Sequence record: OZ035799.1
DNA: 64,000 bases
Source: Justusliebigvirus alia
Strand: one strand, 5' to 3'
Position numbers and translations under genes: made by a program. Under the pieces are notes generated by a model. That model was not told the origin of the DNA. It saw only the letters and a list, made by a program, of their open reading frames with translations, and did not search any database. Of the stretch, positions 12,822 to 30,210 are shown in pieces (position 1 is the stretch's first letter; every line of letters starts with the position of its first letter).

Positions 12822-12832
12822 AAGGGGTTAAA

Positions 12833-13960: not shown

Positions 13961-13975
13961 GTAAGCCAGCAAATA

Positions 13976-14002: not shown

Positions 14003-14034
14003 ATTGATGCCAGATTTAATAAGAGGAGTAATAG

Positions 14035-16182: not shown

Positions 16183-16195
16183 TTTTTATGGGTGT

Positions 16196-16295: not shown

Positions 16296-16573
16296 AGAAT
16301 TTTTCTCATTTAGAGAATAACGCGCAGGGGTGGTGTTTGTCTCGCGCTCCCGTGTCCCCTCGCCATACAATAAGAATAGCATAACCAACAACAAAAGCAA
16401 GCGATTATTTTTATCTTTACATTTCTTTACAAATTTATTTTAGACGAGCTACCGGCGATCAACCTTCCAACCAGTAGTGCCCTGGTATGTTAGCCCCGCC
16501 TTTACGCCGTGGGGGTGGCGTTTCCTCTTCTGTATGTAAAACAGTATAAGCCCGATCCCTGGGCTTGTCAAGA

Positions 16574-16840
16574 TTATTTTTTGTTTTCTTGCCAGGATAG
16601 GACACCTAACCAAAAATACATGTCGCCCCGCGCCCCTGGCGGGATCTTGCTTTCCCCGCCGCCACTGCAAGCCCATAGATAACCATTTACGAACGTATCA
16701 AAGTGATCTATCTCTTCCACCTTATGATTGCCCAGGTTGAGAACGGTTTCAACCTTTAAGCCCGTTGCGCTTGCTACCTGGTGCACCGTGCCGCCTTGCC
16801 AGCCCAATGAGTGCATGAGATGTAAAGGAGTATTTGTCAT
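16574..16840 (-). CDS. hypothetical protein in GC-rich island
   Basis: 88 aa ORF (MTNTPLHLMHSLGWQGGTVHQVA...) with AAAGGG SD; sits in locally GC-rich segment unlike the rest of the window. Confidence 0.3.
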   Translation of the reverse strand: MTNTPLHLMHSLGWQGGTVHQVASATGLKVETVLNLGNHKVEEIDHFDTFVNGYLWACSGGGESKIPPGARGDMYFWLGVLSWQENKK

Positions 16841-17104
16841 GGTATCGCCCTTTCTTTGATGTGCGCCCTGGTTGGCGCGGTAGAAAGATAATAGCCGTTT
16901 CCTTTATAGATAGCAAGCAAAAAAGAAATGAAAAAAGATTAAAAAAATGGTTGACGTTCCTCACCTGGTAGCGTAGTATTCATCTTGTCGAGGGGGCGAG
17001 GCACAACGACAATAAACAAAAGGAGGGCGCAATGTAGGACGGGCAAAGGTGAGGATCTCCACAATCCACCGTCACAATAACATTACTTATAAAAGGTTGA
17101 TAAC

Positions 17105-17200
17105 GATGATCAAGAAAGAAAACAGCTTGACGGTTGGAACGATTAACGCTATCATTCTTGCCGTTCCATTTTGGGTTGTAGTAGCGGTTATTATTTTTTA
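17105..17200 (+). CDS. hypothetical small hydrophobic peptide
   Basis: 31 aa (MIKKENSLTVGTINAIILAVPFWVVVAVIIF); TTGACG-17-TAGTAT promoter-like sequence about 150 nt upstream; speculative. Confidence 0.2.
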
Positions 17201-17209
17201 AAAATATTC

Positions 17210-17267
17210 TTGACAACGTTTTTTAATCTGATAAGATGTATCACATAGGGCGGCAATAGTGCCGCTC
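17210..17267 (+). promoter_or_regulatory. promoter + 5' GC hairpin cassette
   Basis: TTGACA (17210-17215), spacer, CACATA, hairpin GGGCGGCAATAGTGCCGCTC (17248-17267), then AGAGAGA SD and ATG 17290. Confidence 0.5.
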
Positions 17268-17289
17268 ATAACAGAAGAGAGAAATAATC

Positions 17290-17562
17290 ATGGCATCATA
17301 TAGCGCATCAATGATTGTAATGGGTATCACTGGTAAACCTATGCGCGGTGGCGGATCTTTCGCTAACATCAATATTGATGGACGTTTATCCCTGGACGCA
17401 GCGATCACAGTGGCACGGGAAACGTTTAAAAAAGAATGTAATTTCAATAAACAAGATTATCTCGGCTTCGTTATTGAAAAAACCGCGCGCTTTGTTGATT
17501 ATAAAAGCCCGAAAATGATCGACACTACACTAAAGGCGCAAGATGTAGCTTTTTTGCTTTAA
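17290..17562 (+). CDS. hypothetical protein
   Basis: 90 aa ORF behind cassette. Confidence 0.5.
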   Translation: MASYSASMIVMGITGKPMRGGGSFANINIDGRLSLDAAITVARETFKKECNFNKQDYLGFVIEKTARFVDYKSPKMIDTTLKAQDVAFLL

Positions 17563-17570
17563 GGCTTGAC

Positions 17571-17625
17571 ACTGAAAAATAATTTGGTAATATATACCAC
17601 ATAAGGCGGGAAATGGTTTCCCGCC
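17571..17625 (+). promoter_or_regulatory. promoter + 5' GC hairpin cassette
   Basis: TTGACA ... TATATACCACATAA ... hairpin GGCGGGAAATGGTTTCCCGCC (17605-17625). Confidence 0.5.
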
Positions 17626-17647
17626 AAATCAAAGAAAGGGTAACACA

Positions 17648-18010
17648 ATGAGCAAGCAAATCAATACTATCATGTTAAACCTGGTATCTTTCCGTGATGA
17701 CGTGAAAAATCTTTCGCGTGATGCAGTGGATGCACGGATCGAAAGCTATCGCACACAGATCGCAACATTACCGTTAAAACGTGATCAACATGCCGCTAAT
17801 ATGATGCTTGATGCTATGATTAAAAAGATGATTCAGTGTGATCTTACCCTGGCTTATGAATATGCTGGCGATCTCTTTGTAACGTATAATAAGCCCGTTC
17901 CAGGTATGAGCACCACGGAAGAATTGCATGCCTTAAATCTGCGACAAGATGCATGGGATAACATGCGCCGTGTTATGGTATGGGCCGAAAGCGGTAAAAT
18001 TTACGAATAA
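17648..18010 (+). CDS. hypothetical protein
   Basis: 120 aa ORF behind cassette. Confidence 0.5.
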   Translation: MSKQINTIMLNLVSFRDDVKNLSRDAVDARIESYRTQIATLPLKRDQHAANMMLDAMIKKMIQCDLTLAYEYAGDLFVTYNKPVPGMSTTEELHALNLRQDAWDNMRRVMVWAESGKIYE

Positions 18011-18017
18011 AAACGGT

Positions 18018-18070
18018 TGACATTGCACGAAAACCTGATAAGCTATCTTAAAGCGGGAATAGTTCCCGCT
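18018..18070 (+). promoter_or_regulatory. promoter + 5' GC hairpin cassette
   Basis: TTGACA then hairpin AGCGGGAATAGTTCCCGCT (18052-18070). Confidence 0.5.
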
Positions 18071-18088
18071 TACATAGGATAAAACTTT

Positions 18089-18235
18089 ATGAAACAATAT
18101 GTAATGAGTATTCACACCAAAAACGGCGCTACTGTTACGACTCCGGCACGGTTTGCACTTGTAAACCGTTGCAAGAGACTAAAACGAGAGCTAAAAAATA
18201 ACCGTGCAACCGGTTTTAAACGCTGGGGAGGATAA
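18089..18235 (+). CDS. hypothetical small basic protein
   Basis: 48 aa (MKQYVMSIHTKNGATVTTPARFALVNRCKRLKRELKNNRATGFKRWGG); not in track. Confidence 0.35.
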   Translation: MKQYVMSIHTKNGATVTTPARFALVNRCKRLKRELKNNRATGFKRWGG

Positions 18236-18237
18236 TC

Positions 18238-18498
18238 TTGTTTTTTCTAAAAGTTTTTGATAATGTGATCGCTTTTGAACATGCTACGACGTTCGACCTG
18301 GCGAGATACGCTATCAGGTTTAAAGATAATGTTTATCCCCGTGCTGGCGGCGGTTACACTATTTTTAATCATCGTAATGCGCAACTAACAGATATAACGA
18401 ATCCAGATCCTGGAGTGTATCGCATAGGCTGGCTACCGTCAAAAGACGCTGCAAGCATGTTTAAGGTATGTAAACTACTAACAGAAGAGGCGAACTAA
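18238..18498 (+). CDS. hypothetical protein (TTG start)
   Basis: Track ORF begins at TTG 18238 preceded by GGGGAGGA SD. Confidence 0.4.
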   Translation: MFFLKVFDNVIAFEHATTFDLARYAIRFKDNVYPRAGGGYTIFNHRNAQLTDITNPDPGVYRIGWLPSKDAASMFKVCKLLTEEAN

Positions 18499-18499
18499 C

Positions 18500-19054
18500 A
18501 TGGGGCGTGAATATGTGATCCAGTCCTGGGTAAAGCATGATGCTAATGATCCGCGCATAATACCAGATGACATGATCGATCACATGGTAGGGTATAGCGG
18601 GGAGCAGATAGGAAATCGAGCGGCAAAGAGCAACGGCAACACCAGGACGCGATCCGTTCGCCCTGGATGGCTGGCGAATGGTAACGCTGACATTGCAAGC
18701 GCCGCAGATCCAAGCGATGACGCTAAAAATAATCCCTTATACAGCATTGATCCGGCTTTTAAGGTGTTGGAAGAGTATCCCGCTAAATTAGCCGCACTAG
18801 ATAAGGCATACGAAGAAAAGCGCATGGCATGGACTGTATACAACACCGCTAAAATGGTGCTAGATGCAAAATTGATTAAAGCCCAGGAGAAGATCAATAA
18901 ACTTGTTGCAGTAGCGCAAGAGGAAGACCAGGGCGACCAGGAGGAAGAGGAAGAAATCATGCCTACCCTGGAAGAGGAAGAGATCCAGCCATACATGCCG
19001 ACGGAAGAGGAAAAAAGACAAGCCTTAAAAAATTATGAAAATTGCATTGTGTAA
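18500..19054 (+). CDS. hypothetical protein with acidic C-terminal tail
   Basis: 184 aa; C-terminus EEDQGDQEEEEEIMPTLEEEEIQPYMPTEEE. Confidence 0.5.
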   Translation: MGREYVIQSWVKHDANDPRIIPDDMIDHMVGYSGEQIGNRAAKSNGNTRTRSVRPGWLANGNADIASAADPSDDAKNNPLYSIDPAFKVLEEYPAKLAALDKAYEEKRMAWTVYNTAKMVLDAKLIKAQEKINKLVAVAQEEDQGDQEEEEEIMPTLEEEEIQPYMPTEEEKRQALKNYENCIV

Positions 19055-19133
19055 GGCTTGACATATGCAAACAAGCCCCGTAATATATACCACATAGAGC
19101 GGGGCAACGCCTCAAAGGTGAAATAAAAATCAC

Positions 19134-19161
19134 TTGACACCTGAAATCAGTAAGCTATAAT
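19134..19161 (+). promoter_or_regulatory. sigma70-type promoter (consensus -35/-10)
   Basis: TTGACA (19134-19139), 16-nt spacer, TATAAT (19156-19161); drives ORF at 19199. Confidence 0.5.
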
Positions 19162-19198
19162 GCTTATATAGATTGAAACATTACTAAGGAATAAAAGC

Positions 19199-19378
19199 AT
19201 GGCTATTATTGCAAAGACTGAGATCGTAGGTTTAGATTCTATCATCCTGGCATATGAGGAAGCTATAGAAATGTATGTGGTTTCCTATGGTGATTATATC
19301 CGTGAATATAAATTTATTGATCTAGCTTTTGAATGTTATATTCACCAGGTCAATAAAGCCTATGATGATTATCGTTAA
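19199..19378 (+). CDS. hypothetical small protein
   Basis: 59 aa (MAIIAKTEIVGLDSIILAYEEAIEMYVVSYGDYIREYKFIDLAFECYIHQVNKAYDDYR); AAGGAATAA SD. Confidence 0.4.
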   Translation: MAIIAKTEIVGLDSIILAYEEAIEMYVVSYGDYIREYKFIDLAFECYIHQVNKAYDDYR

Positions 19379-19473
19379 AAGTTTTAGTCTTGTGCTATTG
19401 ACAACGAACGATAGTACAAGCATAATAACTTTTATCGGGAATACTCCTAACTAATCAAAAGAGATTAAAGACT

Positions 19474-19839
19474 ATGGCTAAAAATATCAATGTTTCTGCT
19501 TATGCTACCCTGGCTAACACTGCTAAAATTGAACTATCCAGCATTGAAGCGGTACATATTAGCGCCCGTCGCTGGTTTCAAAAGTCTTATGGTAATACTT
19601 ATTTCTCTTTGATGGTTGACGTTGAGATCGGCGGTAAACTGATTGAAGTCGTTAACGTTCCGTTTCATTATGGTTATGGTGATCATTTTGATACCGTTGC
19701 CCTGGAAGAGTTTAGCAAGGTTATCAACCTGGAAGGTAAAGACTTTTCAAATTATGCTTACCTTTCCCGTTTTTGCCGTGACAATGGGATCGCTGTATAC
19801 AGTCATGCAAGCGATGTTAAACGTAAAAAAGATTTATAA
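19474..19839 (+). CDS. hypothetical protein
   Basis: 121 aa ORF. Confidence 0.5.
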   Translation: MAKNINVSAYATLANTAKIELSSIEAVHISARRWFQKSYGNTYFSLMVDVEIGGKLIEVVNVPFHYGYGDHFDTVALEEFSKVINLEGKDFSNYAYLSRFCRDNGIAVYSHASDVKRKKDL

Positions 19840-19849
19840 AAAGCATTGA

Positions 19850-19904
19850 CAGCACGAATAAAAAGCATATAATACTTATATCGAGAGCGGGAATAGTTCC
19901 CGCC
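19850..19904 (+). promoter_or_regulatory. promoter + 5' GC hairpin cassette
   Basis: TTGACA-16-TATAAT then hairpin AGCGGGAATAGTTCCCGCC (19886-19904). Confidence 0.5.
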
Positions 19905-19927
19905 TCACTGAAAAAGAGATTAACATC

Positions 19928-20167
19928 ATGGCTAAATCTAAAATGTACAACGGTCACAAAAACAAAACTCATTGGAATGTAAGCCTTTGGATTAATAACG
20001 ATGAATCGTTATACTTATACGCTGTAGGTTTAATAAATGAGTGTGGTAATAAAGATAAAGCGGCGGATCTAATGTGCTACAGATTAAAACAGGACGGAAT
20101 CACTCATACACCTGATGGTTTCAAGTATAGTAAAACTGCAATCCGTGCCGCTATGGTTGGAATGTAA
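19928..20167 (+). CDS. hypothetical protein
   Basis: 79 aa ORF behind cassette. Confidence 0.5.
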   Translation: MAKSKMYNGHKNKTHWNVSLWINNDESLYLYAVGLINECGNKDKAADLMCYRLKQDGITHTPDGFKYSKTAIRAAMVGM

Positions 20168-20180
20168 AGGAGACATAAAA

Positions 20181-20261
20181 ATGAAACATCGTTCGACCTA
20201 TCTCACAAAACGTTTTAGCTTAGATCATAAATTGGGCTATTACGGAAGAAATAGAAAATAA
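20181..20261 (+). CDS. hypothetical very small protein
   Basis: 26 aa ORF with strong AAAGGAGA SD; speculative. Confidence 0.25.
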   Translation: MKHRSTYLTKRFSLDHKLGYYGRNRK

Positions 20262-20262
20262 T

Positions 20263-20322
20263 TTGACACTGTTTAAAATTCTGGTATAGTTTATCACATA
20301 GGGCGGGAAATGGTTTCCCGCC
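20263..20322 (+). promoter_or_regulatory. promoter + 5' GC hairpin cassette
   Basis: TTGACA (20263-20268), TATAGT (20285-20290), hairpin GGGCGGGAAATGGTTTCCCGCC (20301-20322). Confidence 0.5.
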
Positions 20323-20344
20323 AAATCAAAGAAAGGTTATCATT

Positions 20345-20572
20345 ATGGCTATCGTTATTGTTCGCGTATCCGGTACGGTTGGAATCTCTCAGGTAGTAGC
20401 AGTTATCACAGAGAAGAAAGGGGATGATCTTCACTCCTCCTTGAATAGCTGGGCGGTCGCTAACTTTGGGCAATGGTCGAGCGTTGAGTACATCGAAGCC
20501 TACCAGGTGCCAACGATTAGCCTAACCGATCTGAATGTTGATCGCTTGTTGTGCCTGGATCAATTAAATTAA
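20345..20572 (+). CDS. hypothetical protein
   Basis: 75 aa ORF behind cassette. Confidence 0.5.
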   Translation: MAIVIVRVSGTVGISQVVAVITEKKGDDLHSSLNSWAVANFGQWSSVEYIEAYQVPTISLTDLNVDRLLCLDQLN

Positions 20573-20580
20573 AAATAATA

Positions 20581-20638
20581 TTGACAAGATAACTAAAATC
20601 AGTAAAATGTAATGCATAGGGCGGCAATAGTGCCGCTC
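20581..20638 (+). promoter_or_regulatory. promoter + 5' GC hairpin cassette
   Basis: TTGACA (20581-20586), hairpin GGGCGGCAATAGTGCCGCTC (20619-20638). Confidence 0.5.
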
Positions 20639-20659
20639 CTAGTGAGAGAGATTATCAAA

Positions 20660-20875
20660 ATGACTAATATCCGCACCTTGTTAAAAAATGCAAAGCAAGT
20701 TTTATTTTCAGATGACGAATATTTTAATAAAGATATTACAGGCGTGAAAAATTTAAAAGACGTGAAGGATGTTATCGGTATCCGTGGATCTTTACGTAAA
20801 GGTGACATATACGGTAACAAGGTGCAATATAAACTGTCAAAAGATTATGATTTTACTTTGACATTTATTTCATAA
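20660..20875 (+). CDS. hypothetical protein
   Basis: Start at MTNIRTLLKNAKQ (ATG 20660) after hairpin; the longer track ORF would begin inside the hairpin. Confidence 0.5.
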   Translation: MTNIRTLLKNAKQVLFSDDEYFNKDITGVKNLKDVKDVIGIRGSLRKGDIYGNKVQYKLSKDYDFTLTFIS

Positions 20876-20920
20876 AACCGCTTGCAATACTGCAAAAATA
20901 AAGTAAACTGTACTCATCAA

Positions 20921-20942
20921 GGCGGTGGAATAGCCCACCGCC
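20921..20942 (+). promoter_or_regulatory. 5' GC hairpin (variant)
   Basis: GGCGGTGGAATAGCCCACCGCC; compensatory stem changes relative to other copies. Confidence 0.45.
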
Positions 20943-20965
20943 TAACAAAGAGAAGAGGAAACATC

Positions 20966-21136
20966 ATGATCACTTTCGCTACCCGTGAAGCCGCTCGCAA
21001 CGTTGCACGTAAAGTTAACGCCGCCAACCTGGGCGCTACGCTTAAAGCCCCGGTAAAAGATGAATCAGGTAAATGGATCTTCCCTGGTCTGCGTCACGCT
21101 GATAAGCTGGGAACGTTAACGCTAAAAAATAAATAA
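20966..21136 (+). CDS. hypothetical protein
   Basis: 56 aa (MITFATREAARNVARKVNAANLG...), GAGGAAACATC-ATG. Confidence 0.45.
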   Translation: MITFATREAARNVARKVNAANLGATLKAPVKDESGKWIFPGLRHADKLGTLTLKNK

Positions 21137-21181
21137 AATCCGCTTGACAGTAGCATCATTTATAAGTAAAGTAACAACAAC

Positions 21182-21202
21182 GGCGGGAAATGGTTTCCCG
21201 CC
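21182..21202 (+). promoter_or_regulatory. 5' GC hairpin
   Basis: GGCGGGAAATGGTTTCCCGCC after TTGACA at about 21143. Confidence 0.5.
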
Positions 21203-21222
21203 ATCAATAAAGAGATAAGATC

Positions 21223-21582
21223 ATGAAATCAGTAAAAGCAATTAAAACTTACATTGTGTCGGCTATTTCTTTTGATGGTACTACAACCGAAAAAGAAAAG
21301 ATCACCGAACTGATGCGCCGTTTTAACTCTGAATACTGGTATCCCGATAATCAAAAACGTTACAATTATAACGTGATCAAGGCGATAGCCTCATGGTTAC
21401 AAGGTTTACCGTCAGAAATCAATATTGCTTTTGATTATAACGAGATCGATCACTTGTTAATTGAATGGAAGTACATAAAAGAAACAAGCAAAGAAACAAC
21501 CGTTACCCGTGAGCGGGAAAATTATTGGTTATATATTGCAAGCATGATCGTAATCCTGGCAAAACAGCATAACGTGGCGTAA
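21223..21582 (+). CDS. hypothetical protein
   Basis: 119 aa ORF. Confidence 0.5.
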   Translation: MKSVKAIKTYIVSAISFDGTTTEKEKITELMRRFNSEYWYPDNQKRYNYNVIKAIASWLQGLPSEINIAFDYNEIDHLLIEWKYIKETSKETTVTRERENYWLYIASMIVILAKQHNVA

Positions 21583-21597
21583 TTAAGAGGAAGAAAC

Positions 21598-21735
21598 ATG
21601 AACGCATCACAGCAGATCGAAAAATTCAACCGCAGCAAGGCGCGTAAAGATTGGAACGAAGAGATCACCAAAAAAGGCGACAAGCGGAACAAAACAAAGA
21701 GAGATCGCAGCACAAAAAGATACTGGAACGAATAA
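21598..21735 (+). CDS. hypothetical small basic protein
   Basis: 45 aa, Lys/Arg-rich; AAGAGGAAGAAAC SD; not in track. Confidence 0.4.
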   Translation: MNASQQIEKFNRSKARKDWNEEITKKGDKRNKTKRDRSTKRYWNE

Positions 21736-21740
21736 CAAAA

Positions 21741-21766
21741 AAGGGCGCAATAAGCGCCCTTTTAGC
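21741..21766 (+). terminator. rho-independent terminator
   Basis: GGGCGCAATAAGCGCCC hairpin + TTTTAG; same hairpin family at 25952 and 27124. Confidence 0.6.
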
Positions 21767-21853
21767 TTATATAGAGGCTTGTTACCCATAGGCAATGGTA
21801 ATGCCAGGATAAGCCTATAAACCACGTTAGACAGCTTTACAGGAGCTTTAAAA

Positions 21854-22036
21854 ATGAAATTAGAAGAAATAAGCAAGGCACTAGCCCAGGGGCAAAGGTT
21901 AAACGCCCGTTATCGTGATCAATATGGCTTCATAACCAGCGGCGTGATCCTGGGGATTGAAGGCAATAAGATTTTTATTGACACGTTGAAAAACGTTGTA
22001 TATAGTGACAATATAATCTCAATAAAACATATATGA
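21854..22036 (+). CDS. hypothetical protein
   Basis: 60 aa ORF. Confidence 0.4.
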   Translation: MKLEEISKALAQGQRLNARYRDQYGFITSGVILGIEGNKIFIDTLKNVVYSDNIISIKHI

Positions 22037-22044
22037 GGCAAGAA

Positions 22045-22446
22045 ATGAAAAAATTATTGATCGCTGGTTTAATCTCTTTTGGCATGGTTGGAACATCTAG
22101 CGCGGCGATATCCTCCACAGTAGCAGAATTAAGCGCCGTTGATGCAATGGAAAACGTCATGCTTATTAATAATGCGATCCCCGATGAAATCATGGAGGAT
22201 TCACACATGATCGCTTATGGTGCTGTTACACAACTAACGGCAAAAATAGATAAATCTATTGTTAATGGCTTAAATGAAGATGTACCATGTGAAATTATTA
22301 CCAGTGTGCTCACTACTCAAAATTTTACGCCGTGGTTAAAAAGTATTCAAAAAGTACACAGTACAGCCGCAGATCGTAGCAATGAAAAACTAGTGTCAGC
22401 ACTTGCAACGTATACCCTAGCAAAATGTACCGAGATAAAAGATTGA
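22045..22446 (+). CDS. putative secreted/periplasmic protein
   Basis: N-terminal MKKLLIAGLISFGMVGTSSAA signal-peptide-like segment. Confidence 0.5.
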   Translation: MKKLLIAGLISFGMVGTSSAAISSTVAELSAVDAMENVMLINNAIPDEIMEDSHMIAYGAVTQLTAKIDKSIVNGLNEDVPCEIITSVLTTQNFTPWLKSIQKVHSTAADRSNEKLVSALATYTLAKCTEIKD

Positions 22447-22493
22447 CAATATAGAAAGCACGTTATAAGATACACACAACAAAGGAGAACTAC

Positions 22494-22796
22494 ATGAACG
22501 GCATAGCTAAAACGTTTTTTCTTTTTTCTGGTGTAAATGATCCATCAATAAAAGTCGATAGTGTAAAAGAAAACAATACTATCACAGCTAAATTGTCTCA
22601 AGATGAAACAAATAACGTGCTAATCATTAATCTTAAAGAAATAACAAAAGGTTATTACACTATTGCTTACCATGCGATCTATAATGCTGGTACTAGTGAG
22701 GAAGTGCAAACAAGCAACAACGAAAGCGCGGCGCTACCTGGTGATCTGGTGCTGGGCGTTATCAGTTTAATTGTCAATGATTTTTTTAAGGAGTAA
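22494..22796 (+). CDS. hypothetical protein
   Basis: 100 aa ORF; TTGACA promoter-like sequence at 22443. Confidence 0.45.
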   Translation: MNGIAKTFFLFSGVNDPSIKVDSVKENNTITAKLSQDETNNVLIINLKEITKGYYTIAYHAIYNAGTSEEVQTSNNESAALPGDLVLGVISLIVNDFFKE

Positions 22797-22800
22797 AACC

Positions 22801-22896
22801 ATGCCCTATTTACATTTATTTTTCGGTATCTTATTGACAGGATCTTTTTTCTTCTGTATGCTTGTTTCTATTGTAAACCACGTTTTAAGACATTAA
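22801..22896 (+). CDS. hypothetical small membrane peptide
   Basis: 31 aa (MPYLHLFFGILLTGSFFFCMLVSIVNHVLRH); not in track. Confidence 0.3.
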   Translation: MPYLHLFFGILLTGSFFFCMLVSIVNHVLRH

Positions 22897-22905
22897 GGAA
22901 ACAGC

Positions 22906-23025
22906 ATGAAAATTATTCCCGTACAGTATAGCGTAATAAATCCAGCATATGAGGAAGGAAGGAAAACAAGCATGGCTTTATGTTGTATTGCTACTATAGC
23001 CATGTTATTATATATTGTGTTTTAA
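22906..23025 (+). CDS. hypothetical small membrane peptide
   Basis: 39 aa with C-terminal hydrophobic stretch ALCCIATIAMLLYIVF. Confidence 0.3.
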   Translation: MKIIPVQYSVINPAYEEGRKTSMALCCIATIAMLLYIVF

Positions 23026-23119
23026 TAGGTTTTATAGTTGTACGCTTTAAAGGCTTGACAATTTTTTGTTATGCTTTAAAATATATCTTGAAAACGGCAA
23101 AGGCCGCAAACAAAAGGGT

Positions 23120-23449
23120 AAAATTATGAAATCTGTGATCGGTGTTTATTTGGATAACTCTGATTTTTTCTATCATCGTGCGCGTTTCCTTGATGCGATT
23201 GAAATGATAGAATCAGGCTTTAAAGAGTATCGCCTTGCACATGATGACCTGGAAGCATTACAGGGCAATAGTGTTTTTACATTGCAAGCTAAAGCACTAT
23301 GCAAAAGCCGGATCGACATTGCAAGCAAAAAGATAGAACGCGGCATGTCCTGGTTGCGCACCGCAGAAATCAACATGGGGCAATGGTACGGCGAAAACTT
23401 AGAAAATAAACACACTTTTGTAAATGTAGAAAATATTAAAGATTATTGA
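23120..23449 (+). CDS. hypothetical protein
   Basis: Start at MKSVIGVYLD with AAAGGGTAAAA SD. Confidence 0.5.
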   Translation, partial: KIMKSVIGVYLDNSDFFYHRARFLDAIEMIESGFKEYRLAHDDLEALQGNSVFTLQAKALCKSRIDIASKKIERGMSWLRTAEINMGQWYGENLENKHTFVNVENIKDY

Positions 23450-23450
23450 T

Positions 23451-23502
23451 TGACAGCACACCTGATAAGTAATATATTGTATCTCATAGAGCGGGGAAAT
23501 GG
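23451..23502 (+). promoter_or_regulatory. promoter + 5' GC hairpin cassette
   Basis: TTGACA (23451), TATATT, hairpin GCGGGGAAATGGTTTCCCCGC (23481-23501). Confidence 0.5.
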
Positions 23503-23531
23503 TTTCCCCGCCTTAACAGAAGAGATAAGAT

Positions 23532-23816
23532 ATGAAGATCACAAAAGCACTTTCCAACTATGCAGCACGTCGCGGCTTATGCTTAACCGTTGAAAACTTA
23601 GGGAAAGAAGATTTTTTGTGCTTTTGGGAGCTTGAGAATGATAATGAGTGGATCTTCTCTTATTCTATCTGCAAAGATCAAAATGGTTGCTTGTTAACAT
23701 GGCGAGGTAATATCTATTTACCGGAAGAAATAAAACAAGAATTACCAGGCACGATCATGACTGAGAAACAGCTTAAGGAAGTGATCAATTTTGTAGGGCA
23801 AAACATTAAAAAATAA
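23532..23816 (+). CDS. hypothetical protein
   Basis: 94 aa ORF behind cassette. Confidence 0.5.
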   Translation: MKITKALSNYAARRGLCLTVENLGKEDFLCFWELENDNEWIFSYSICKDQNGCLLTWRGNIYLPEEIKQELPGTIMTEKQLKEVINFVGQNIKK

Positions 23817-23817
23817 T

Positions 23818-23877
23818 TTGACAGTAGGCAAACAACGTAGTAAAGTTTATCACATAGGGCGGGAAATGGTTTCCCGC
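23818..23877 (+). promoter_or_regulatory. promoter + 5' GC hairpin cassette
   Basis: TTGACA (23818), hairpin GGGCGGGAAATGGTTTCCCGC (23857-23877). Confidence 0.5.
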
Positions 23878-23900
23878 TCACAACAAAAGAGAAACAAATC

Positions 23901-24071
23901 ATGATCCCGACTATGTTTTACGTATCGCGCAAAGGTCACAATATTTTTTGGTCTGAAGATTTAAATGAAGCCATGACGTTTGCCCGTGATCGTGTTGCTA
24001 TCGGTGGCGTTAATATTACCGTAACCGATGAAAACGGCATTGAATACTACAACGGCGACGATGAAGAGTAA
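23901..24071 (+). CDS. hypothetical protein
   Basis: 56 aa (MIPTMFYVSRKGHNIFWSEDLNEAMTF...); not in track. Confidence 0.4.
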   Translation: MIPTMFYVSRKGHNIFWSEDLNEAMTFARDRVAIGGVNITVTDENGIEYYNGDDEE

Positions 24072-24078
24072 TTAATAA

Positions 24079-24100
24079 GGCGGGGGGAGTATTCCCCGCC
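24079..24100 (+). promoter_or_regulatory. 5' GC hairpin without upstream -35 box
   Basis: GGCGGGGGGAGTATTCCCCGCC starts 8 nt after the preceding stop codon; no TTGACA upstream. Confidence 0.45.
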
Positions 24101-24119
24101 ATCAATAAAGAGATAAATC

Positions 24120-24389
24120 ATGAAAATATCATTGGACGTTGCAATCAAGGCCATCGAATCCGGTTACACCCTGGTAAAAGATGATAAGGCTAAAATAGTG
24201 CATCATGTTAACAAGGAAACAGGCGAAAGCATGATCACATATAAAGCCGCCTACTTTCTCCAATCAGTAGCAGATCCGCGCGTACAGCGCCAGGTCACGG
24301 CGGCTATTGCTAAAAAATTATGTGCTTTACAGGGCACAAGTTTTAACGAGATCCCGCCGTGTTTTGACTGGTCGAGCTTGAAAAAATAG
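24120..24389 (+). CDS. hypothetical protein
   Basis: 89 aa ORF. Confidence 0.5.
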   Translation: MKISLDVAIKAIESGYTLVKDDKAKIVHHVNKETGESMITYKAAYFLQSVADPRVQRQVTAAIAKKLCALQGTSFNEIPPCFDWSSLKK

Positions 24390-24391
24390 TT

Positions 24392-24448
24392 TGACAAAAA
24401 TTATAAATCGGGTAGAATGTATTTCGTAGGGCGGCAATAGTGCCGCTC
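24392..24448 (+). promoter_or_regulatory. promoter + 5' GC hairpin cassette
   Basis: TTGACA (24392), hairpin GGGCGGCAATAGTGCCGCTC (24429-24448). Confidence 0.5.
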
Positions 24449-24469
24449 GCAACTAAAAGAGAAATCATC

Positions 24470-24664
24470 ATGGCGCTTAAAAAACTAACAAGCAATACTC
24501 GTTGGGATGAAATCGACGGGGAAGTATACATTTTCGCCCGTAAACCAGGTGATCAAAAATGGTCAAAGGCTTTTACTTGTCACCCTGCAACAATAGATCT
24601 AATAAAAAGTAAAGGTTTACGTGAAGCAGTAGCGAGAAGTTTACTGATTCCTTGTAAAAAATAG
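24470..24664 (+). CDS. hypothetical protein
   Basis: Start at MALKKLTSNTRW (ATG 24470) after hairpin. Confidence 0.45.
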   Translation: MALKKLTSNTRWDEIDGEVYIFARKPGDQKWSKAFTCHPATIDLIKSKGLREAVARSLLIPCKK

Positions 24665-24727
24665 TTTGACAATATGCGGTTATCTGGTAAAGTGTACCAC
24701 GTAGGGCGGGGCAATAAGGCAACGCCC
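24665..24727 (+). promoter_or_regulatory. promoter + 5' GC hairpin cassette (variant)
   Basis: TTGACA (24665), hairpin GGGCGGGGCAATAAGGCAACGCCC (24704-24727). Confidence 0.45.
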
Positions 24728-24745
24728 ACTAATGAGGGTAAAATC

Positions 24746-24850
24746 ATGTTAGAGAAAATTTTCACGGTTGTAATAGTGGGCCTGGCGTTATCGGTTGGAG
24801 TGATTGCAACTATGGCTAACATGATCCTATCTTCCCACGGTATTGGATAA
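24746..24850 (+). CDS. hypothetical small membrane peptide
   Basis: 34 aa (MLEKIFTVVIVGLALSVGVIATMANMILSSHGIG); not in track. Confidence 0.3.
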   Translation: MLEKIFTVVIVGLALSVGVIATMANMILSSHGIG

Positions 24851-24860
24851 GGTGAATCAA

Positions 24861-25076
24861 ATGATCACGAATAAGACAGGTAAAACGGAATTTTTACGCG
24901 GCTTGCAAATAGGTAAACCTGAGATCTGGCATTGCACTAAAAGACCACGTGACGAAATGAAAGATTTCACCGCTACTTTACAACGTGTTAAAATATCTAT
25001 CACACAGAAAAAAGCCTTGTTAGTAGTAGAAAACGAGATCCCGCAAACCATTATTATTGTCGAGCGTACAGCATGA
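24861..25076 (+). CDS. hypothetical protein
   Basis: First ATG (MITNKTGKTE) of a track ORF whose listed start is TTG. Confidence 0.45.
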   Translation: MITNKTGKTEFLRGLQIGKPEIWHCTKRPRDEMKDFTATLQRVKISITQKKALLVVENEIPQTIIIVERTA

Positions 25077-25459
25077 AAACTGAAATCATTAACGAAATGA
25101 TCAACGGCTATAAAGAAGCCTTTATTTTTGCCGAACCAGCGACGGATCACAATGGGGAATATATTGAGAATCTAGACGATTATGATTTTTCTCCTAGCGC
25201 CCTGAAACGTATTACCAGCGATGTGACCGCCTTTTGTAGTGCCAATGTTGCCGCTATCTCTGAGGCAATGAGCGACGGCGCAACAGCAAACCAGATCGGG
25301 AATGACTTACATTTCACCCGTAACGGTCACGGCGTAGGCTTTTGGGATCGCCCTGAAATATACACTACTAACACCGCCAACCGCCTAACAAATGCAGCTA
25401 AATTAATGCCATCGGTGCATGCTTACATTGGTGAAGATAATTTGATTTATATTGAATAA
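25073..25459 (+). CDS. hypothetical protein
   Basis: 128 aa ORF, ATGA overlap with previous gene. Confidence 0.5.
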   Translation: MKTEIINEMINGYKEAFIFAEPATDHNGEYIENLDDYDFSPSALKRITSDVTAFCSANVAAISEAMSDGATANQIGNDLHFTRNGHGVGFWDRPEIYTTNTANRLTNAAKLMPSVHAYIGEDNLIYIE

Positions 25460-25465
25460 AAGTAT

Positions 25466-25523
25466 TGACACCGATCCCCAGTATGGTATTATTTACCACG
25501 TAGGCGGGAAATGGTTTCCCGCC
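25466..25523 (+). promoter_or_regulatory. promoter + 5' GC hairpin cassette
   Basis: TTGACA (25466), hairpin GGCGGGAAATGGTTTCCCGCC (25503-25523). Confidence 0.5.
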
Positions 25524-25546
25524 AGGTAATCAAAAAGGTAAATACT

Positions 25547-25936
25547 ATGCGCAACCTGGTTTCTGTTTCTAACGTTGAAAAATTCCAATCTTTACAGGGT
25601 ATCGTTAACAACGTAGCGCCTTTTTTAGTCAATGGCTTGATTGCAAAGATGAAGAATAAACATCATGCCGCATGGTCTGCTTACTGCTTTGACAATGATG
25701 AAAAAGCGGCTGAAATGATGTTAAATATGCTGTTAGACAGTGTAGAATCATCTTTACCGGAAAACATCGCAGAAGAGATCACCTATCGTTATAATATGGC
25801 GATCACTTACCAGGAGGTTGCGCAATTTAATATGATGGATGATGACGAACAACAGGATCAGGAAATTTTCTGGGAGTATGCTGATCGCCAATCGGCTTTT
25901 GATGAAAAATTAGCGATGTATTATAATGAATATTAA
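25547..25936 (+). CDS. hypothetical protein
   Basis: Start at MRNLVSVSNV with AAAAAGG SD; track ORF begins inside hairpin. Confidence 0.5.
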   Translation: MRNLVSVSNVEKFQSLQGIVNNVAPFLVNGLIAKMKNKHHAAWSAYCFDNDEKAAEMMLNMLLDSVESSLPENIAEEITYRYNMAITYQEVAQFNMMDDDEQQDQEIFWEYADRQSAFDEKLAMYYNEY

Positions 25937-25951
25937 TACACGGTAAAAGAA

Positions 25952-25977
25952 AGGGGCGCACTAAGCGCCCTTTTTTG
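25952..25977 (+). terminator. rho-independent terminator
   Basis: GGGGCGCACTAAGCGCCC hairpin + TTTTTTG. Confidence 0.65.
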
Positions 25978-26399
25978 TATTCTTTTTTCACAATGGAAGC
26001 GACACGTAAAGAATAGGCGTAAAGGTGGCGTAAAACCATCTAAAACCGACTGTAACCGCTTAAACAAGGTAGGAATGATTAATCACCTTACCAGGATGAA
26101 AAAGCCGTTATAAAGCTATCTAGAGCGTTTAAAGCACATAGGAAATAATTTGCTTTTTATCTTGCCTTTTATTCTGCTTTTGATTATTATTATGGAACGG
26201 GCGGCACCTGGGGACAGGGGGAAGATAATCACCGGACGACCCCGCTATATATTGATAGCTAACATCTATCAAACAACAAAACATCAAAGAAATAAACTAT
26301 CAAATCTTTACAATCTCATCTATTGACCGATAAATCATAGCAGTTTAATATTGTTTTTAGAGGGTAGAACATACCCAAAACGAAAACAGGAAAAAGAAA

Positions 26400-26636
26400 A
26401 TGAAAGAAGTCATGATCCTCAAAAAATCACCTATTTTACGTGGTGGCTTTATCGCTTACTCTGATGATCTGTTAATTGCAACGGTTGCAAAAATACTAAA
26501 ATCAGAAGAGGATAGTAAAAACGGCGTTTATCGTATCTGTTTCACCCGTGGGAAATTGCAAGGCAAGATCGCCTATGCTTTTGATTTACAAGATGTAAAT
26601 GATAAAATCTGCGCTGTTATTGATTATGCAAAATAA
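26400..26636 (+). CDS. hypothetical protein
   Basis: 78 aa ORF preceded by TTGACC-17-TAATAT promoter-like sequence. Confidence 0.5.
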   Translation: MKEVMILKKSPILRGGFIAYSDDLLIATVAKILKSEEDSKNGVYRICFTRGKLQGKIAYAFDLQDVNDKICAVIDYAK

Positions 26637-26723
26637 TTAACTTTCTTATTGACACCGGATCACGCTTACATTATTATTTATCACGTAGGGCAAATCATTT
26701 TAAACGGTAAACGAGGAAACACC

Positions 26724-27107
26724 ATGAGCAATATCATCAACCTGGCAGCGACTGTAAACGGTAAAGACTTTAACGGCGCTGTAGACCGTGATCCTATGTG
26801 GTGCTTATCAGTGTTTAAAGGCGACCTGGTTGAAGTTAGAACAACCGAAGGGTATAGCGATGATTATAAATGCGAGATCCATTTACATAACTGGTACACG
26901 GGTAAAACTTATGCGCTGAATCACGCGTTTATCGGGAAAATTGAATATCGCGAAATGATCGACGAAGAAACGGGGCAAGATTTTAGCGATTATGTTTATA
27001 TTCGTTCCGAAACATTAGCCGAACGGTTGATCGAGAAAATGAAAGCAAAAAATAAAATTAATTTATCTCATTGGATTGATATAACAAACGATCCAGCTTA
27101 TCAGTAA
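26724..27107 (+). CDS. hypothetical protein
   Basis: Start at MSNIINLAATVNGK with GAGGAAACACC SD. Confidence 0.5.
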   Translation: MSNIINLAATVNGKDFNGAVDRDPMWCLSVFKGDLVEVRTTEGYSDDYKCEIHLHNWYTGKTYALNHAFIGKIEYREMIDEETGQDFSDYVYIRSETLAERLIEKMKAKNKINLSHWIDITNDPAYQ

Positions 27108-27123
27108 ATAACATTCCATACAA

Positions 27124-27149
27124 GGGCGCAATAAGCGCCCTTTCTTTTT
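27124..27149 (+). terminator. rho-independent terminator
   Basis: GGGCGCAATAAGCGCCC hairpin + TTTCTTTTT; closes the plus-strand small-gene array. Confidence 0.65.
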
Positions 27150-27429
27150 ACCTCAATAAAGATGATAGCTTTTACCTATCAAAAACGTTCACCGAAAAAA
27201 GTGAATAGATCGCGGTATCGAGCTAATCAAGGAGCAGATGAACAACCATACCATGAAGATCATAAGGCGCTTACAACGTGTTTTAGACCGCTTATTTTTA
27301 ATTTCTTCATGCAACTATCTGGCAAAAACAGCCTTTTTCTTGTCTTTCCTCTTAAATGATAATCATTCTTATTTATAGCTGATTATTTATGCAATAAACT
27401 GCATAATGCAATAATGATAATCATTCTTA

Positions 27430-27780
27430 ACTTATGACCATCTAACCTATAAAATAATAAGTTATCTAACTAAATTAAAACTAATTATCTTACTTTTATT
27501 TATAACTTACTGTTACTATCTCATTGATAACCTTATATTAAACAACAATAACTAATATAAATCATTACTAAGCTAAATATAATCTATCTAACCTTTAAAA
27601 CTATAACTATAATCTATTGAATTATTGCACAAAGTAACTATTAAATCGTTAGTAACATTACTAAATAATTAATATCCTATTTATTTATGATCTAATCTTT
27701 ACCTTACTATCTATTACCTAAATAATCATTTTATACCGTAATCATTTCATACAATAATTATAACAAGAAATATAATTAGC
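27430..27780. other. G-poor, extremely AT-rich noncoding tract (strand-asymmetric composition)
   Basis: Top strand almost devoid of G over about 350 bp (cta/taa-rich); no ORFs. Confidence 0.4.
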
Positions 27781-27816
27781 AAGCGTATCATTAGCAGCCT
27801 ATGCCGGACACATAGG

Positions 27817-27965
27817 CGGCTAATAATAACGCAACTACACACCCCACATAATAACCATCACCGATAGTTATTATTTGTGCTTATGTAGCTTGCAACAACT
27901 GCAAGCGCAACAATATACATGGTATATTGTATTCCCTTACATTGTTGCGGTGCGTTATTATTAGC
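27817..27965. repeat. long-range inverted repeat (15-bp perfect arms) enclosing a palindrome
   Basis: GCTAATAATAACGCA (27818-27832) and TGCGTTATTATTAGC (27950-27964); internal GCTTGCA-acaac-TGCAAGC palindrome near 27890. Confidence 0.5.
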
Positions 27966-27984
27966 TAATGTTTAGAACATTGGC

Positions 27985-28062
27985 TATAATATAAGCTATC
28001 CAATAATATAAGCTATCCAATAATAATAAGCTATACAATAATAATAAGCTATACAATAATAA
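27985..28062. repeat. iteron-like direct repeats (4 copies, 17-18 bp)
   Basis: ataagctatccaataat x2 followed by ataagctatacaataata x2 in tandem. Confidence 0.6.
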
Positions 28063-28944
28063 ACATCGTGAATAATGATGCTGATGATCATAATGCGCCA
28101 CCTTCCAGGGCGGCGCTATGTGAACACAAAGAAATCTTTCTTGTCAAGAAAAATATTAACACTATTGCGCAAAATTATTTATATATGAATAGATGGTTTT
28201 TCATACTATTGCCCCTATAACATACCTCATTTGTTGCAATGTACCTTCCTATTTGTTGAGTATAGTTATAGCCTATTTGTTGAGCCTACTTTCTTAAAAG
28301 CGCAATAAAGTAGAAATATCTTGATTTTTAGTCGGTTTTATAGTACAGAAAGTATGCAAATGATAATCATTATCAGCTATCTTCCACGGGTAGCACTATT
28401 TCACGCCAGATCATTTCATTTGGCAAGGTGTATATAGATGTTTAGACTTGCCAAGCCATTGATTTACTTAGAATTTATCTGTTTTGTTGTGAGTAGTACC
28501 TTTCTTGCTCAGAAAATAATCAAAAGTCTTATAAGTCATTGAATGATAATGCAAATGATAATTATTCTCATTGATATTTGAGGGGGACGGTCGGCAGAAA
28601 TCGGGGGGCGCTGAAAATCGCGTTAAGCACCTCTCGCAAGCGAGCAGTATTTTGCGGCAAGTTATTGATATTATTGACTTTACGCTTATGAAAAGGGGGT
28701 GTGTCGAAATAAATCGGGTATACCGGAAAATTTTTGTGGCATAGATATTTATTTGTCTATATTATGTACAAAGGGGTGTGTTAAAAATATTAGGTATATA
28801 TAGAATAATTGATAGGGAAATCCTATGCTAATCCCTCCATTAATGATGTTCCTATGTTACTGTTCTTGTAATAGATGAAAAGACGCTGTATGATGTGTGG
28901 CATGAAACGTAAACTTACAACGTAAACTTATAAAGGAGTCTGAT

Positions 28945-29322
28945 ATGTGTGTTCCTCTTAGCAGTCCACTGCTGTTAGAATTTTACAAAGCATGGATGCA
29001 AGATCATTCCTCAATGCATCGTGAGAATGTTGGTTTGTGTATTTGCCTTATGGATTATCTGGCAACCACTATGTCAAAGAAAAAACCTACGCGAGAAGAT
29101 ATAGAACATTTCAAAATGGTTCGCAGTAAAACGCTGGAAGAGATGAAATTGCAATTCACGTGTGCTGGGCTATCCTCCTTCCTGCCCTTTAATGATGATC
29201 TTCTGTGTTATGAAGATGAAGGTAAGAAACATTCTTGCCATACTAACCCAGAGAGATTGCAGTGGGTGAAAGATCGTATTGCCGATTCATGTTTGGTGTT
29301 AGGGGGTGATAATGAAAAGTAA
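28945..29322 (+). CDS. hypothetical protein, paralog family A (copy 1)
   Basis: Shares L..FY.AW, GLC.CL.DY, QFTCAGL...LPFN, CHTN..RLQWVKDRI with ORFs at 29312, 31604, 32596. Confidence 0.5.
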   Translation: MCVPLSSPLLLEFYKAWMQDHSSMHRENVGLCICLMDYLATTMSKKKPTREDIEHFKMVRSKTLEEMKLQFTCAGLSSFLPFNDDLLCYEDEGKKHSCHTNPERLQWVKDRIADSCLVLGGDNEK

Positions 29323-29680
29323 TATTCCGTTGAGTAGTGCAGCTTTAATACGATTCTATAAAGCATGGATTGCCAACCATCCGGCAATGAATCGCACAAC
29401 GAGTGGCTTGTGTGGTTGTCTGGTAGATTATGTAGATGATTTTGTTGGTGAGGTAACTAGAGAAGAAGATAAAAGATGGCGTGATCGTTTGTTGGATAGT
29501 TTGAAATACGAAATGAGGAAACAATTTACATGTGCAGGACTGGACTACAATCTTCCGTTCAATGCAGATTGCATGGATTACCTTTCAGAATGTATAGACT
29601 TGGCGTGTCATACCAACACGTTACGTCTTCAATGGGTGAAAGACAGAATCGAAGATGCAAATAATGCTTGCATTGAATAG
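29312..29680 (+). CDS. hypothetical protein, paralog family A (copy 2)
   Basis: Same motif set as copy 1; start could also be 29306. Confidence 0.5.
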   Translation: MKSNIPLSSAALIRFYKAWIANHPAMNRTTSGLCGCLVDYVDDFVGEVTREEDKRWRDRLLDSLKYEMRKQFTCAGLDYNLPFNADCMDYLSECIDLACHTNTLRLQWVKDRIEDANNACIE

Positions 29681-29751
29681 AAATGCCTGTACACTGTGTT
29701 CCATAAGATATGCAATATCGCGCATAACAAAACTACTAATGAGAGGTGTAA

Positions 29752-30210
29752 ATGAAAACTGTATCTTTGTATCTTGCTAACACGGAGCGTGTACATAATC
29801 TTGTAAAAGAATGCGGTGTGAGTGTTCAATTTAACATAGGAACGCCTTCCGTGGTGACAGGCAGCGAGATGTGTGTTATTGATTTCATCAATGAATATTT
29901 TCGTGGGAAGCCTATTGCTCGTCACTTCATTCGAGAAATGCGAGATGTACAACAGGATTATGAATTCTACCCAGAAATTTGTGAACGCTATGAAACTATT
30001 CTTAGTTCTGTAGAAGATCCAGATACCAGTGAAACAGGTGTTTCCCACTTACTGTGGATGTTGAATGAAATCCAGGATGGGTGTAATGATATGTCTGAAA
30101 CCAAACGCCATCGTTGGCTAGGCTATATTCAGGGTGTTATGGTTATGAAAAACCTTATTACAGTTGATGATGAACGTAACGCTACGCGCCCCGTCTTTAA
30201 TGGAGCATAA
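29752..30210 (+). CDS. hypothetical protein
   Basis: 152 aa; no secure motif. Confidence 0.5.
   Translation: MKTVSLYLANTERVHNLVKECGVSVQFNIGTPSVVTGSEMCVIDFINEYFRGKPIARHFIREMRDVQQDYEFYPEICERYETILSSVEDPDTSETGVSHLLWMLNEIQDGCNDMSETKRHRWLGYIQGVMVMKNLITVDDERNATRPVFNGA

Follow-up and report, generated by a model that had tools for sequence, protein, structure and literature searches.

Justusliebigvirus alia is a phi92-like myovirus of 148 kb that belongs to the subfamily Stephanstirmvirinae. We describe here a non-coding interval of its genome (27110-28944), which hosts the direct terminal repeat (DTR) of the phage chromosome together with several conserved features at its left. All coordinates refer to a window of 64 kb, corresponding to positions 64001-128000 of the alia record. 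The interval is 100% identical to record OZ035770.1, and 46 records of related phages span 80% or more of it, mostly at 90-96% identity. It is bordered by the end of a gp30.8-like gene (Pfam PF06019) at 27107 and by an ATG at 28945 with the ribosome-binding site AAGGAG. As the original prediction, made from the DNA letters alone, had proposed, no credible open reading frame (ORF) lies between these borders. Only short ORFs are found, and the best of them (27238-27378, with AAGGAG 3 nt upstream) was rejected as a small protein because it is absent in Phapecoctavirus, in Klebsiella phages and in Citrobacter phage Tr1. A search for tRNA and tmRNA genes also returned none. The position of the gap is common to Stephanstirmvirinae: 1.5-1.9 kb free of genes are found there in Phapecoctavirus and in unclassified phages of Klebsiella and Citrobacter, and these distant members align with alia only in islands of approximately 70-80% identity. 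Comparisons within the genus give the spacer an identity of 0.9-1.0 per 25 bp, a level of conservation equal to that of the genes around it.

The physical ends of the chromosome fall inside this interval. In the record of phage phi92 (FR775895.2, features PHI92_DTR-L and PHI92_DTR-R), a left and a right DTR of 343 bp are annotated. Alignment to both copies places the repeat of alia at 28283-28625 on the + strand, with 8 differences over 343 positions (approximately 98% identity). The right end of phi92 terminates exactly with ...GAAAATCGCGTTA and its left end begins exactly with AGCCTACTTTC.... Since the DTR maps to 28283-28625 as a single copy, the alia assembly is a permuted form, and the interval corresponds to the concatemer junction. 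Two other phages lead to the same boundaries. BME3 has a DTR of 342 bp as determined with PhageTerm (PMC12210895), and the end of its record falls on the same boundary within one base. In the Phapecoctavirus Schickermooser, the suffix of the record equals its prefix in an exact duplication of 329 bp with homologous boundaries, and the repeat was published as 328 bp (PMC6563267). Several independent records are also opened exactly at, or near, position 28282. Overall, three independently sequenced phages agree on both boundaries within one base, as is the case for unique ends. By homology, the same sequence is therefore likely to be found at both ends of alia virion DNA, which would assign this phage to the class with short DTRs and T7-like packaging.

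These results support the proposal of a packaging site, which was one half of the original prediction. Among the features cited in its favour, only the duplicated CCTATTTGTTGAG, which is the left cut-site motif, touches a terminus, while the G-poor tract, the inverted repeat and the iteron-like repeats are located 220-850 bp left of the DTR. The packaging-site idea rediscovers known biology, because the terminal repeat of this group of phages has already been annotated and published. Compared with the DTRs of phi92 and other Stephanstirmvirinae (FR775895.2, PMC12210895, PMC6563267), the locus, the repeat and the boundaries are the same and nothing differs in the repeat.

The alignment of both boundaries returns a common sequence at the cut sites. 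The left boundary reads ...TTTGTTG^AGCCTAC... in alia and phi92, with the cut between 28282 and 28283, and ...ATGTTG^AGCA... in Phapecoctavirus; the right boundary reads ...CGCGTTA^AGCAC... in all of them. The core shared by the two boundaries, GTTR^AGC, is conserved across the five lineages aligned. In particular, the left motif TGTTG^AGC is kept in five out of five lineages and the right motif CGCGTTA^AGCAC is conserved, with one-base departures from the longer motif in the left copy of the window and in the right copy of Wec190 (GTTC^AGCAG). The pairing of the two motifs predicts DTRs of 329 bp in phAPEC8, 344 bp in Klebsiella phage KP13-26 and 321 bp in Citrobacter phage Tr1. We rejected the core as a stand-alone signal as it occurs at chance frequency, and recognition specificity must therefore lie in other sequences.

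The motif of the left boundary also occurs in repeated form upstream of it. The duplication of CCTATTTGTTGAG, initially noticed around 28250-28285, is confirmed on the + strand at 28248 and 28272 (28248-28284), and both the motif match and the phi92 alignment indicate that the second copy spans the left DTR boundary. A third, partial copy (TTTGTTG) precedes the first by approximately 20 bp. The left cut-site motif TGTTGAGC is also repeated upstream of the DTR in KP13-26 (three copies, at 2502, 2569 and 2638 of L009) and in Tr1 (two copies, at 2919 and 2986 of L021). The copies are spaced by 67-69 bp in these two phages and by 24 bp in alia (28248 and 28272). In Phapecoctavirus there is a single TGTTGAGC copy, preceded by a short GC-rich hairpin. 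The additional copies may be alternative or ancestral cut sites, or binding sites of the terminase. Judging from the aligned sequences, candidate cis packaging signals near the DTR are the structured element described below, the repeated TGTTGAGC motifs and the small GC hairpins.

A strongly conserved structure lies to the left of these motifs. A perfect inverted repeat of 15 bp had been proposed at 27818 and 27950, enclosing the palindrome GCTTGCA-acaac-TGCAAGC. Both are present, the repeat one base further on (27819-27833 and 27951-27965) and the palindrome at 27888-27906. We found that they are parts of a larger element of approximately 170 nt and six helices (27797-27965), which is defined by fold z-scores and covariation. 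It starts with the hairpin H1 (27797-27803/27811-27817), followed by the 15-bp closing stem, which surrounds three arms. Arm 1 is a 4-bp stem (27835-27838/27885-27888) capped by the hairpin H2 (27852-27859/27863-27870), arm 2 is the invariant palindrome H3 (27889-27894/27900-27905), and arm 3 is the helix H4 (27906-27909/27947-27950). The fold of region 27795-27975 has z-scores of -6.8 as + strand RNA, -7.7 as - strand RNA and -7.3 as DNA, and none of 200 shuffled sequences folds as well. In a sliding fold scan, strong structure is detectable in the interval only at this element and at the terminator. With a covariance model, the window yields a single copy (181.8 bits), and in every lineage checked the element is single-copy in the genome and precedes the left cut site by 200-460 bp.

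To measure the conservation of the fold, we gathered homologues of the element from GenBank phages, IMG/VR and metagenomes, for a total of 27 distinct sequences. Standard pairs occupy 99.0% of the cells, as compared to 21-45% when the partners are slid by one to three columns. Overall, 13 out of the 44 pairs given by RNAalifold have changed on both sides, accounting for 87 cells, and none of 500 shuffles reaches these values. Base pairs are thus kept by compensatory substitution beyond the controls, as is generally the case in structured RNA or single-stranded DNA elements. H1 occurs as GCCTATG/CATAGGC, CGCTATG/CATAGCG and CGCTACG/CGTAGCG. The closing stem contains ..AACGCA/TGCGTT.., ..AAGCCA/TGGCTT.., ..ACCGCA/TGCGGT.. 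or ..AACACA/TGTGTT.., and H2 is found as ATAACCATC/GATGGTTAT, CATTACTATT/AATAGTAAT, GTGACTATT/AATAGTCAC and CAACGATT/AATCGTT. Across genera, the independent states number at least four for the closing stem, four for H1 and seven for H2, in a region where the neighbouring sequence is too diverged to be aligned. No match to Rfam 15 was found at gathering thresholds in the whole window, and the best hits of the region at E-values up to 10 have at most 21 bits, compared to thresholds of 40-95. We consider it possible, albeit with rather low confidence, that the element represents a new class of phage functional nucleic acid across Stephanstirmvirinae, either a trans-acting RNA or a folded-DNA signal. 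As a non-coding RNA made beside the chromosome end, it may serve packaging or takeover in a tailed phage that has a classical terminase; as DNA, it may be read by the terminase or by a resolvase to duplicate the terminal repeat.

The loop of H2 (27860-27862) shows a peculiar pattern, being ACC or GGT, and GCC or GGC, in close relatives, with each pair composed of reverse complements. Moreover, H2 of the window is within one base of an exact inversion of H2 of Phapecoctavirus. This pattern points either to template switching that inverts the sequence at the level of DNA or to patch recombination across genera. We set aside its interpretation as a sign of hairpin-primed replication, as patch recombination explains it equally well given that H2 of phage arall is identical to that of phAPEC8, a Phapecoctavirus.

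The DNA to the left of the element is characterized by its composition and by the genes that precede it. A tract of approximately 350 bp with few G on the + strand had been described at 27430-27780, and indeed only 14 out of 351 nucleotides are G (A 42%, T 38%, C 16% and G 4%). The longest stretch of the window with no more than 10 G falls within it (27462-27766). As + strand RNA, the tract is nearly unstructured, with -3 to -9 kcal/mol per 120-nt window. The same depletion of G on the + strand occurs at the same position in phAPEC8, Wec190, ZCKP1 and KP13-26, despite diverged sequence, which indicates that it is conserved as composition and not as sequence. The terminator that had been predicted at 27124 is also confirmed: an 8-pair stem-loop followed by a T-run (27122-27142, + strand) forms an intrinsic terminator that closes the upstream array of early genes, is conserved across genera and is annotated in phages Paula and phAPEC8. 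Upstream of it, small genes are spaced by approximately 85 bp and most of them have a near-consensus sigma-70 promoter. In total, approximately 25 such promoters (TTGACA-16/17-TATAAT-like, 10-12 matches out of 12) occur on the + strand between 17000 and 26700, roughly one per small gene, and all of them face the junction and the right end of the chromosome. When both strands of 11000-30000 are considered, there are 90 promoter-like sites compared to 65 expected. Because the G-poor tract comes after a terminator, faces many strong promoters and is free of structure as RNA, it may act as a back-up zone for Rho loading.

The spaced small genes give way to a tightly packed operon downstream of the gap, in agreement with the change of gene style that had been noted there. 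The change of gene orientation proposed at the same place is not real, as both flanks and the entire block between 11 and 41 kb are on the + strand, and GC skew is positive on both sides of the gap.

Between the terminator and the G-poor tract lies a conserved block (block A, 27143-27430) with the conserved stretch TGAATAgATCGCGGTATCGAGCTAATCAA, and the area 27120-27469 is approximately 70% identical to Phapecoctavirus. This block contains two motifs (27355-27370 and 27413-27428) that resemble the binding site of the iron regulator Fur of Escherichia coli, which has the 19-bp consensus GATAATGATAATCATTATC. Fur-like sites had been overlooked in the original prediction and occur in the interval at 27355, 27413, 28359 and 28554, the last two inside the DTR. 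In the window, the motif AATGATAATCATTCTC has 21 matches with at most three mismatches, compared to 1.6 expected, and 17 of them are found in two non-coding regions. Five matches to the 19-mer consensus of E. coli Fur have at most three mismatches, as opposed to 0.02 expected, and the best, at 28356-28374, agrees at 17 out of 19 positions, while the site at 27410-27428 agrees at 16 out of 19. The positions of the sites are kept in most genera aligned, although the first DTR box is missing in KP13-26 and the second in Tr1. Besides its two Fur-box-like motifs (28356-28374 and 28551-28572), the DTR contains a sigma-70-like sequence (TTGGCA-17-TAGACT, 28420-28448), and its interior is only approximately 70% identical across lineages. 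Like Fur-regulated promoters of E. coli, the phage sites form arrays of overlapping motifs; unlike them, they belong to a virulent phage and lie inside a terminal repeat and non-coding hubs, and Fur binding is putative. No match to the Fur-box array that could indicate a host source was found in 5,426 E. coli genomes, and a literature search on Fur boxes in lytic phages returned nothing relevant. The boxes in the DTR may couple genome processing or early transcription to iron status, or may titrate Fur as phage DNA multiplies.

Between the two left Fur-like boxes there is also the inverted repeat TTATGCA-N6-TGCATAA (27387-27406), which is kept in Justusliebigvirus, Phapecoctavirus and KP13-26 and may be the operator of some regulator.

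To the right of the DTR, the leader of the left-end operon (28626-28944, + strand) extends to the ribosome-binding site before the ATG and includes a conserved block at 28742-28832. Two AAAGGGGTGTG motifs had been reported here, at 28694 and 28771, with a recurrence at 15787. The sequence is exact at 28770 and at 15786, while position 28693 reads AAGGGGGTGTG. In the more general form AA(A/C/T)AG(G/A)G(G/T)GT, the motif at 28693-28703, approximately 70 nt past the right DTR boundary, is shared by each of the five lineages aligned, apart from small deviations within the central run of G. Three of the five have a second copy (28770), and another one lies at 15786. As each copy occurs approximately 7 nt after a -10-like hexamer, this motif may indicate where a class of phage transcripts begins.

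The explanation of the interval that we favour, with modest confidence, is that it represents the genome terminus, or concatemer junction, and the terminus control region of a phi92-like myovirus. By homology, the last early gene is followed in the concatemer by the terminator, approximately 1.15 kb of non-coding DNA, one repeat of 343 bp, a leader of 320 bp and then the gene that opens the left-end operon. Cutting into mature chromosomes takes place at two sites of the GTTR^AGC type, which lie on either edge of the repeat and 343 bp from each other, and as a consequence each virion DNA starts with AGCCTAC..., ends with ...CGCGTTA and has a copy of the repeat at each end. To the left of the repeat, the conserved non-coding DNA would then be the right-end subterminal control region, where the terminator and the G-poor tract, with its Rho-loading-type composition, may insulate the junction from the approximately 25 early promoters. 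The six-helix element would be a cis signal, folding when the DNA is single-stranded or extruded, and would serve recognition or binding by the terminase, duplication of the repeat, or both. The Fur-box-like sites may bring a dimeric regulator to both the junction and the promoters of the leader, with host Fur as the best-matching candidate. Phages with short repeats must duplicate the repeat, and a hairpin intermediate, the precedent for this reading, has been observed at the T7 junction (PMC4281155, summarizing Molineux 2006 and Chung & Hinkle 1990).

Several observations weigh against this explanation. The ends of alia are transferred by homology from phi92, BME3 and Schickermooser, and the packaging role of the element, of the G-poor tract and of the Fur-like sites is argued from proximity and conservation alone. 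The 9-mer GTTRAGCMC occurs twice compared to 1.4 times expected, and the left boundary of the window itself does not fit it. The G-poor tract is not enriched in C (16% and 19% overall), so that it fits a Rho site only moderately. A consensus scan of the region for promoters returned 14 sites when 14 were expected, with no convincing promoter for the structured element or for the left-end operon, in whose leader the best consensus matches are 9 out of 12. Finally, the compensatory changes of the element fit RNA structure as well as DNA structure, and two of its properties hint at RNA. The - strand fold is more stable than that of the + strand (-78.5 and -63.2 kcal/mol, with a z-score of -7.7 for the former), and 12 non-standard cells of H2 are A.C on the + strand where the letters are listed, which corresponds to G.U wobbles on the - strand.

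These same properties favour the strongest alternative, according to which the element is the gene of a non-coding RNA, most plausibly transcribed leftward from the - strand, and a neighbour of the DTR rather than its partner. Such an RNA would begin with a folded 5' domain (27965 to 27797) and continue into a long tail poor in C, and would act in trans, for example in packaging, in an early-gene switch or in counter-defence. The quality of the covariation is typical of structured RNAs, and the coding strand has more G than C throughout the window, with the - strand being the one richer in G than in C in the G-poor tract. In addition, the alignment reads as if the segments GCTTGC, GCAAGCG and CGCTT permitted an alternative pairing, with H3 exchanged for the hairpin AAGCG...CGCTT as in a switch. 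However, G.U pairs are nearly absent, which is unusual for RNA helices: only six cells are detectable, all at one pair of H4 and on the + strand, which is the opposite pattern to that of H2. We dropped the attempt to call the strand from wobble pairs, as the 12 A.C-type and six G.U cells on the + strand are too few and contradictory. Many changes are instead swaps of GC with CG or of AU with UA that keep both strands paired, as expected for a DNA structure. No conserved promoter or intrinsic terminator of the element was found on either strand, the lack of Rfam matches extends to E-values of 10, and a literature search found no relevant transcriptomes of Stephanstirmvirinae. Overall, we consider an RNA gene unlikely.

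The other half of the original prediction, a replication origin, finds no positive support. We regard as improbable the possibility that the region at the left of the DTR is, or is also, an origin composed of an asymmetric AT-rich unwinding tract, a folded initiation signal and protein-binding repeats, similar to the secondary origins that flank the concatemer junction of T7. Some features are consistent with it. The G-poor tract has 80% A+T over 350 bp with extreme strand asymmetry, and it contains no GTC on the + strand and a single one on the - strand, GTC being the core of the T7-type primase recognition site. The multi-hairpin fold is conserved by compensation, and such folds resemble single-strand initiation signals, for example the priming sites of G4 and phiX174. 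According to its title, as cited in PMC4281155, the work of Chung & Hinkle (1990) describes the packaging during infection of a plasmid that bears a T7 origin as well as the concatemer junction of this phage. The remaining features do not fit. The four iteron-like repeats proposed at 27985-28062 do exist as a tandem repeat (27986-28062; 18 bp in 4.4 copies with 96% matches, Tandem Repeats Finder) but are not conserved as iterons. There are four copies in alia, two in arall, Paula and phi92 and none in KP13-26 and Tr1, while Schickermooser has a weak, unrelated repeat, and within the genus these positions show the lowest conservation of the region. Thus, although approximately four 18-bp units adjoin AT-rich DNA as in iteron origins such as those of lambda and plasmids, the interval differs from them because the number of units is not conserved and the repeat is absent in sister genera. 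Of the elements that define an iteron origin, only AT-rich DNA is present, and it is non-specific. No DnaA box (TTWTNCACA) occurs in 27110-28944, and the total of the window is at chance level; there is no initiator or other replication gene beside the interval, as the flanking genes are gp30.8-like or belong to PHROGs of unknown function. Cumulative GC skew turns at approximately 11 kb and 41 kb together with the direction of transcription, and not at the interval. Skew follows transcription also in rV5 and is uninformative for origins in these phages (PMC3606486). Moreover, a second non-coding region of the window, from 15760 to approximately 16600, is at least an equally good candidate.

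This second region is AT-rich and gene-free. It contains a tandem repeat of 67 bp in two copies (15974-16104) with a third, diverged copy, approximately 11 overlapping Fur-box-like motifs (16196-16310), a copy of AAAGGGGTGTG (15786), hairpins rich in GC (16496-16527) and, pointing leftward, a near-consensus promoter (16571-16543). No homologue was found in E. coli genomes, and the region could be a regulatory hub.

It is very improbable that all features except the DTR are functionless, in an AT-rich spacer where slippage makes the repeats and template switching keeps the palindromes perfect: the copy numbers of the tandem repeat and of TTTGTTG do vary freely among near-identical phages and the reverse-complementary H2 loops are a mark of template switching or patch recombination, but the spacer is conserved like the genes around it, the element maintains its pairing through many independent states between unalignable neighbours, and the Fur-like boxes hold their position in most lineages.

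The terminus control region that we propose has both similarities to and differences from known systems. In T7, repeats and hairpin sequence lie on the right-end side of the junction. The interval resembles the junction of the T7 group in the short exact repeat, in the unique ends and in the presence of non-coding repeats and hairpin-forming sequence beside the repeat (PMC4281155, PMC4283147). However, the repeat is 160-235 bp long in the T7 group and 321-344 bp in the alia group, alia is a 148-kb myovirus with neither a promoter of a phage RNA polymerase nor a pause site at the junction, and the simple palindrome of T7 is replaced by a six-helix fold of 170 nt, whose role in processing is putative. 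In T5, the sub-terminal non-coding region is known as the area of the 'injection stop signal' and contains many direct and inverted repeats as well as DnaA boxes. Alia shares with T5 a kilobase-scale, gene-free region near the terminal repeat that has repeats and palindromes and is conserved among relatives. The T5 region, however, is inside a repeat of 10 kb and is tied to two-step DNA entry, whereas that of alia is outside a very short repeat and has no DnaA boxes. As for the packaging RNA (pRNA) of phi29, the alia element is a folded nucleic acid of approximately 170 nt with a multi-helix junction that is encoded near the end of the chromosome. It has no sequence or Rfam similarity to pRNA, and its transcription is hypothetical; furthermore, the genome of phi29 lacks a terminal repeat and relies on a terminal protein. 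In the records and papers that we searched, the cut-site core, the 170-nt element supported by covariation, the conserved depletion of G and the Fur-like boxes in the repeat appear to be undescribed.

Two further observations concern the records used for comparison. We rejected the gp30.8-like gene as an anchor to distant phages, as it matches approximately 1000 records of T4-like phages and as phAPEC8 has an unrelated gene in its place. Because this anchor is useless, Vequintavirinae (rV5, whose map has a 'non-coding' box) were left out of the comparison. In addition, four records deposited as 'Campylobacter phage' with host C. jejuni (MG065639, MG065645, MG065656 and MG065689) are approximately 95% identical to the region and have phi92-like genome sizes. 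They seem to be Justusliebigvirus genomes that were mislabelled or are contaminants.

The location of the ends is first of all a matter of bookkeeping for annotators, as it guides the orientation of alia-like assemblies. The boundary rule, TGTTG^AGC at the left and CGCGTTA^AGCAC at the right, predicts that relatives with permuted records have repeats of 321-344 bp. The interval also offers testable cis elements in phages that are used for therapy and for host-range work, such as phi92, BASEL Bas60-62 and phAPEC8. How the repeat is duplicated during packaging is still debated even for T7, and a compensated structure beside the repeat represents a clean genetic handle on this question. If it is true that the boxes bind Fur, they would constitute a clear case of a virulent coliphage that ties the iron sensing of its host to the ends of its own chromosome.

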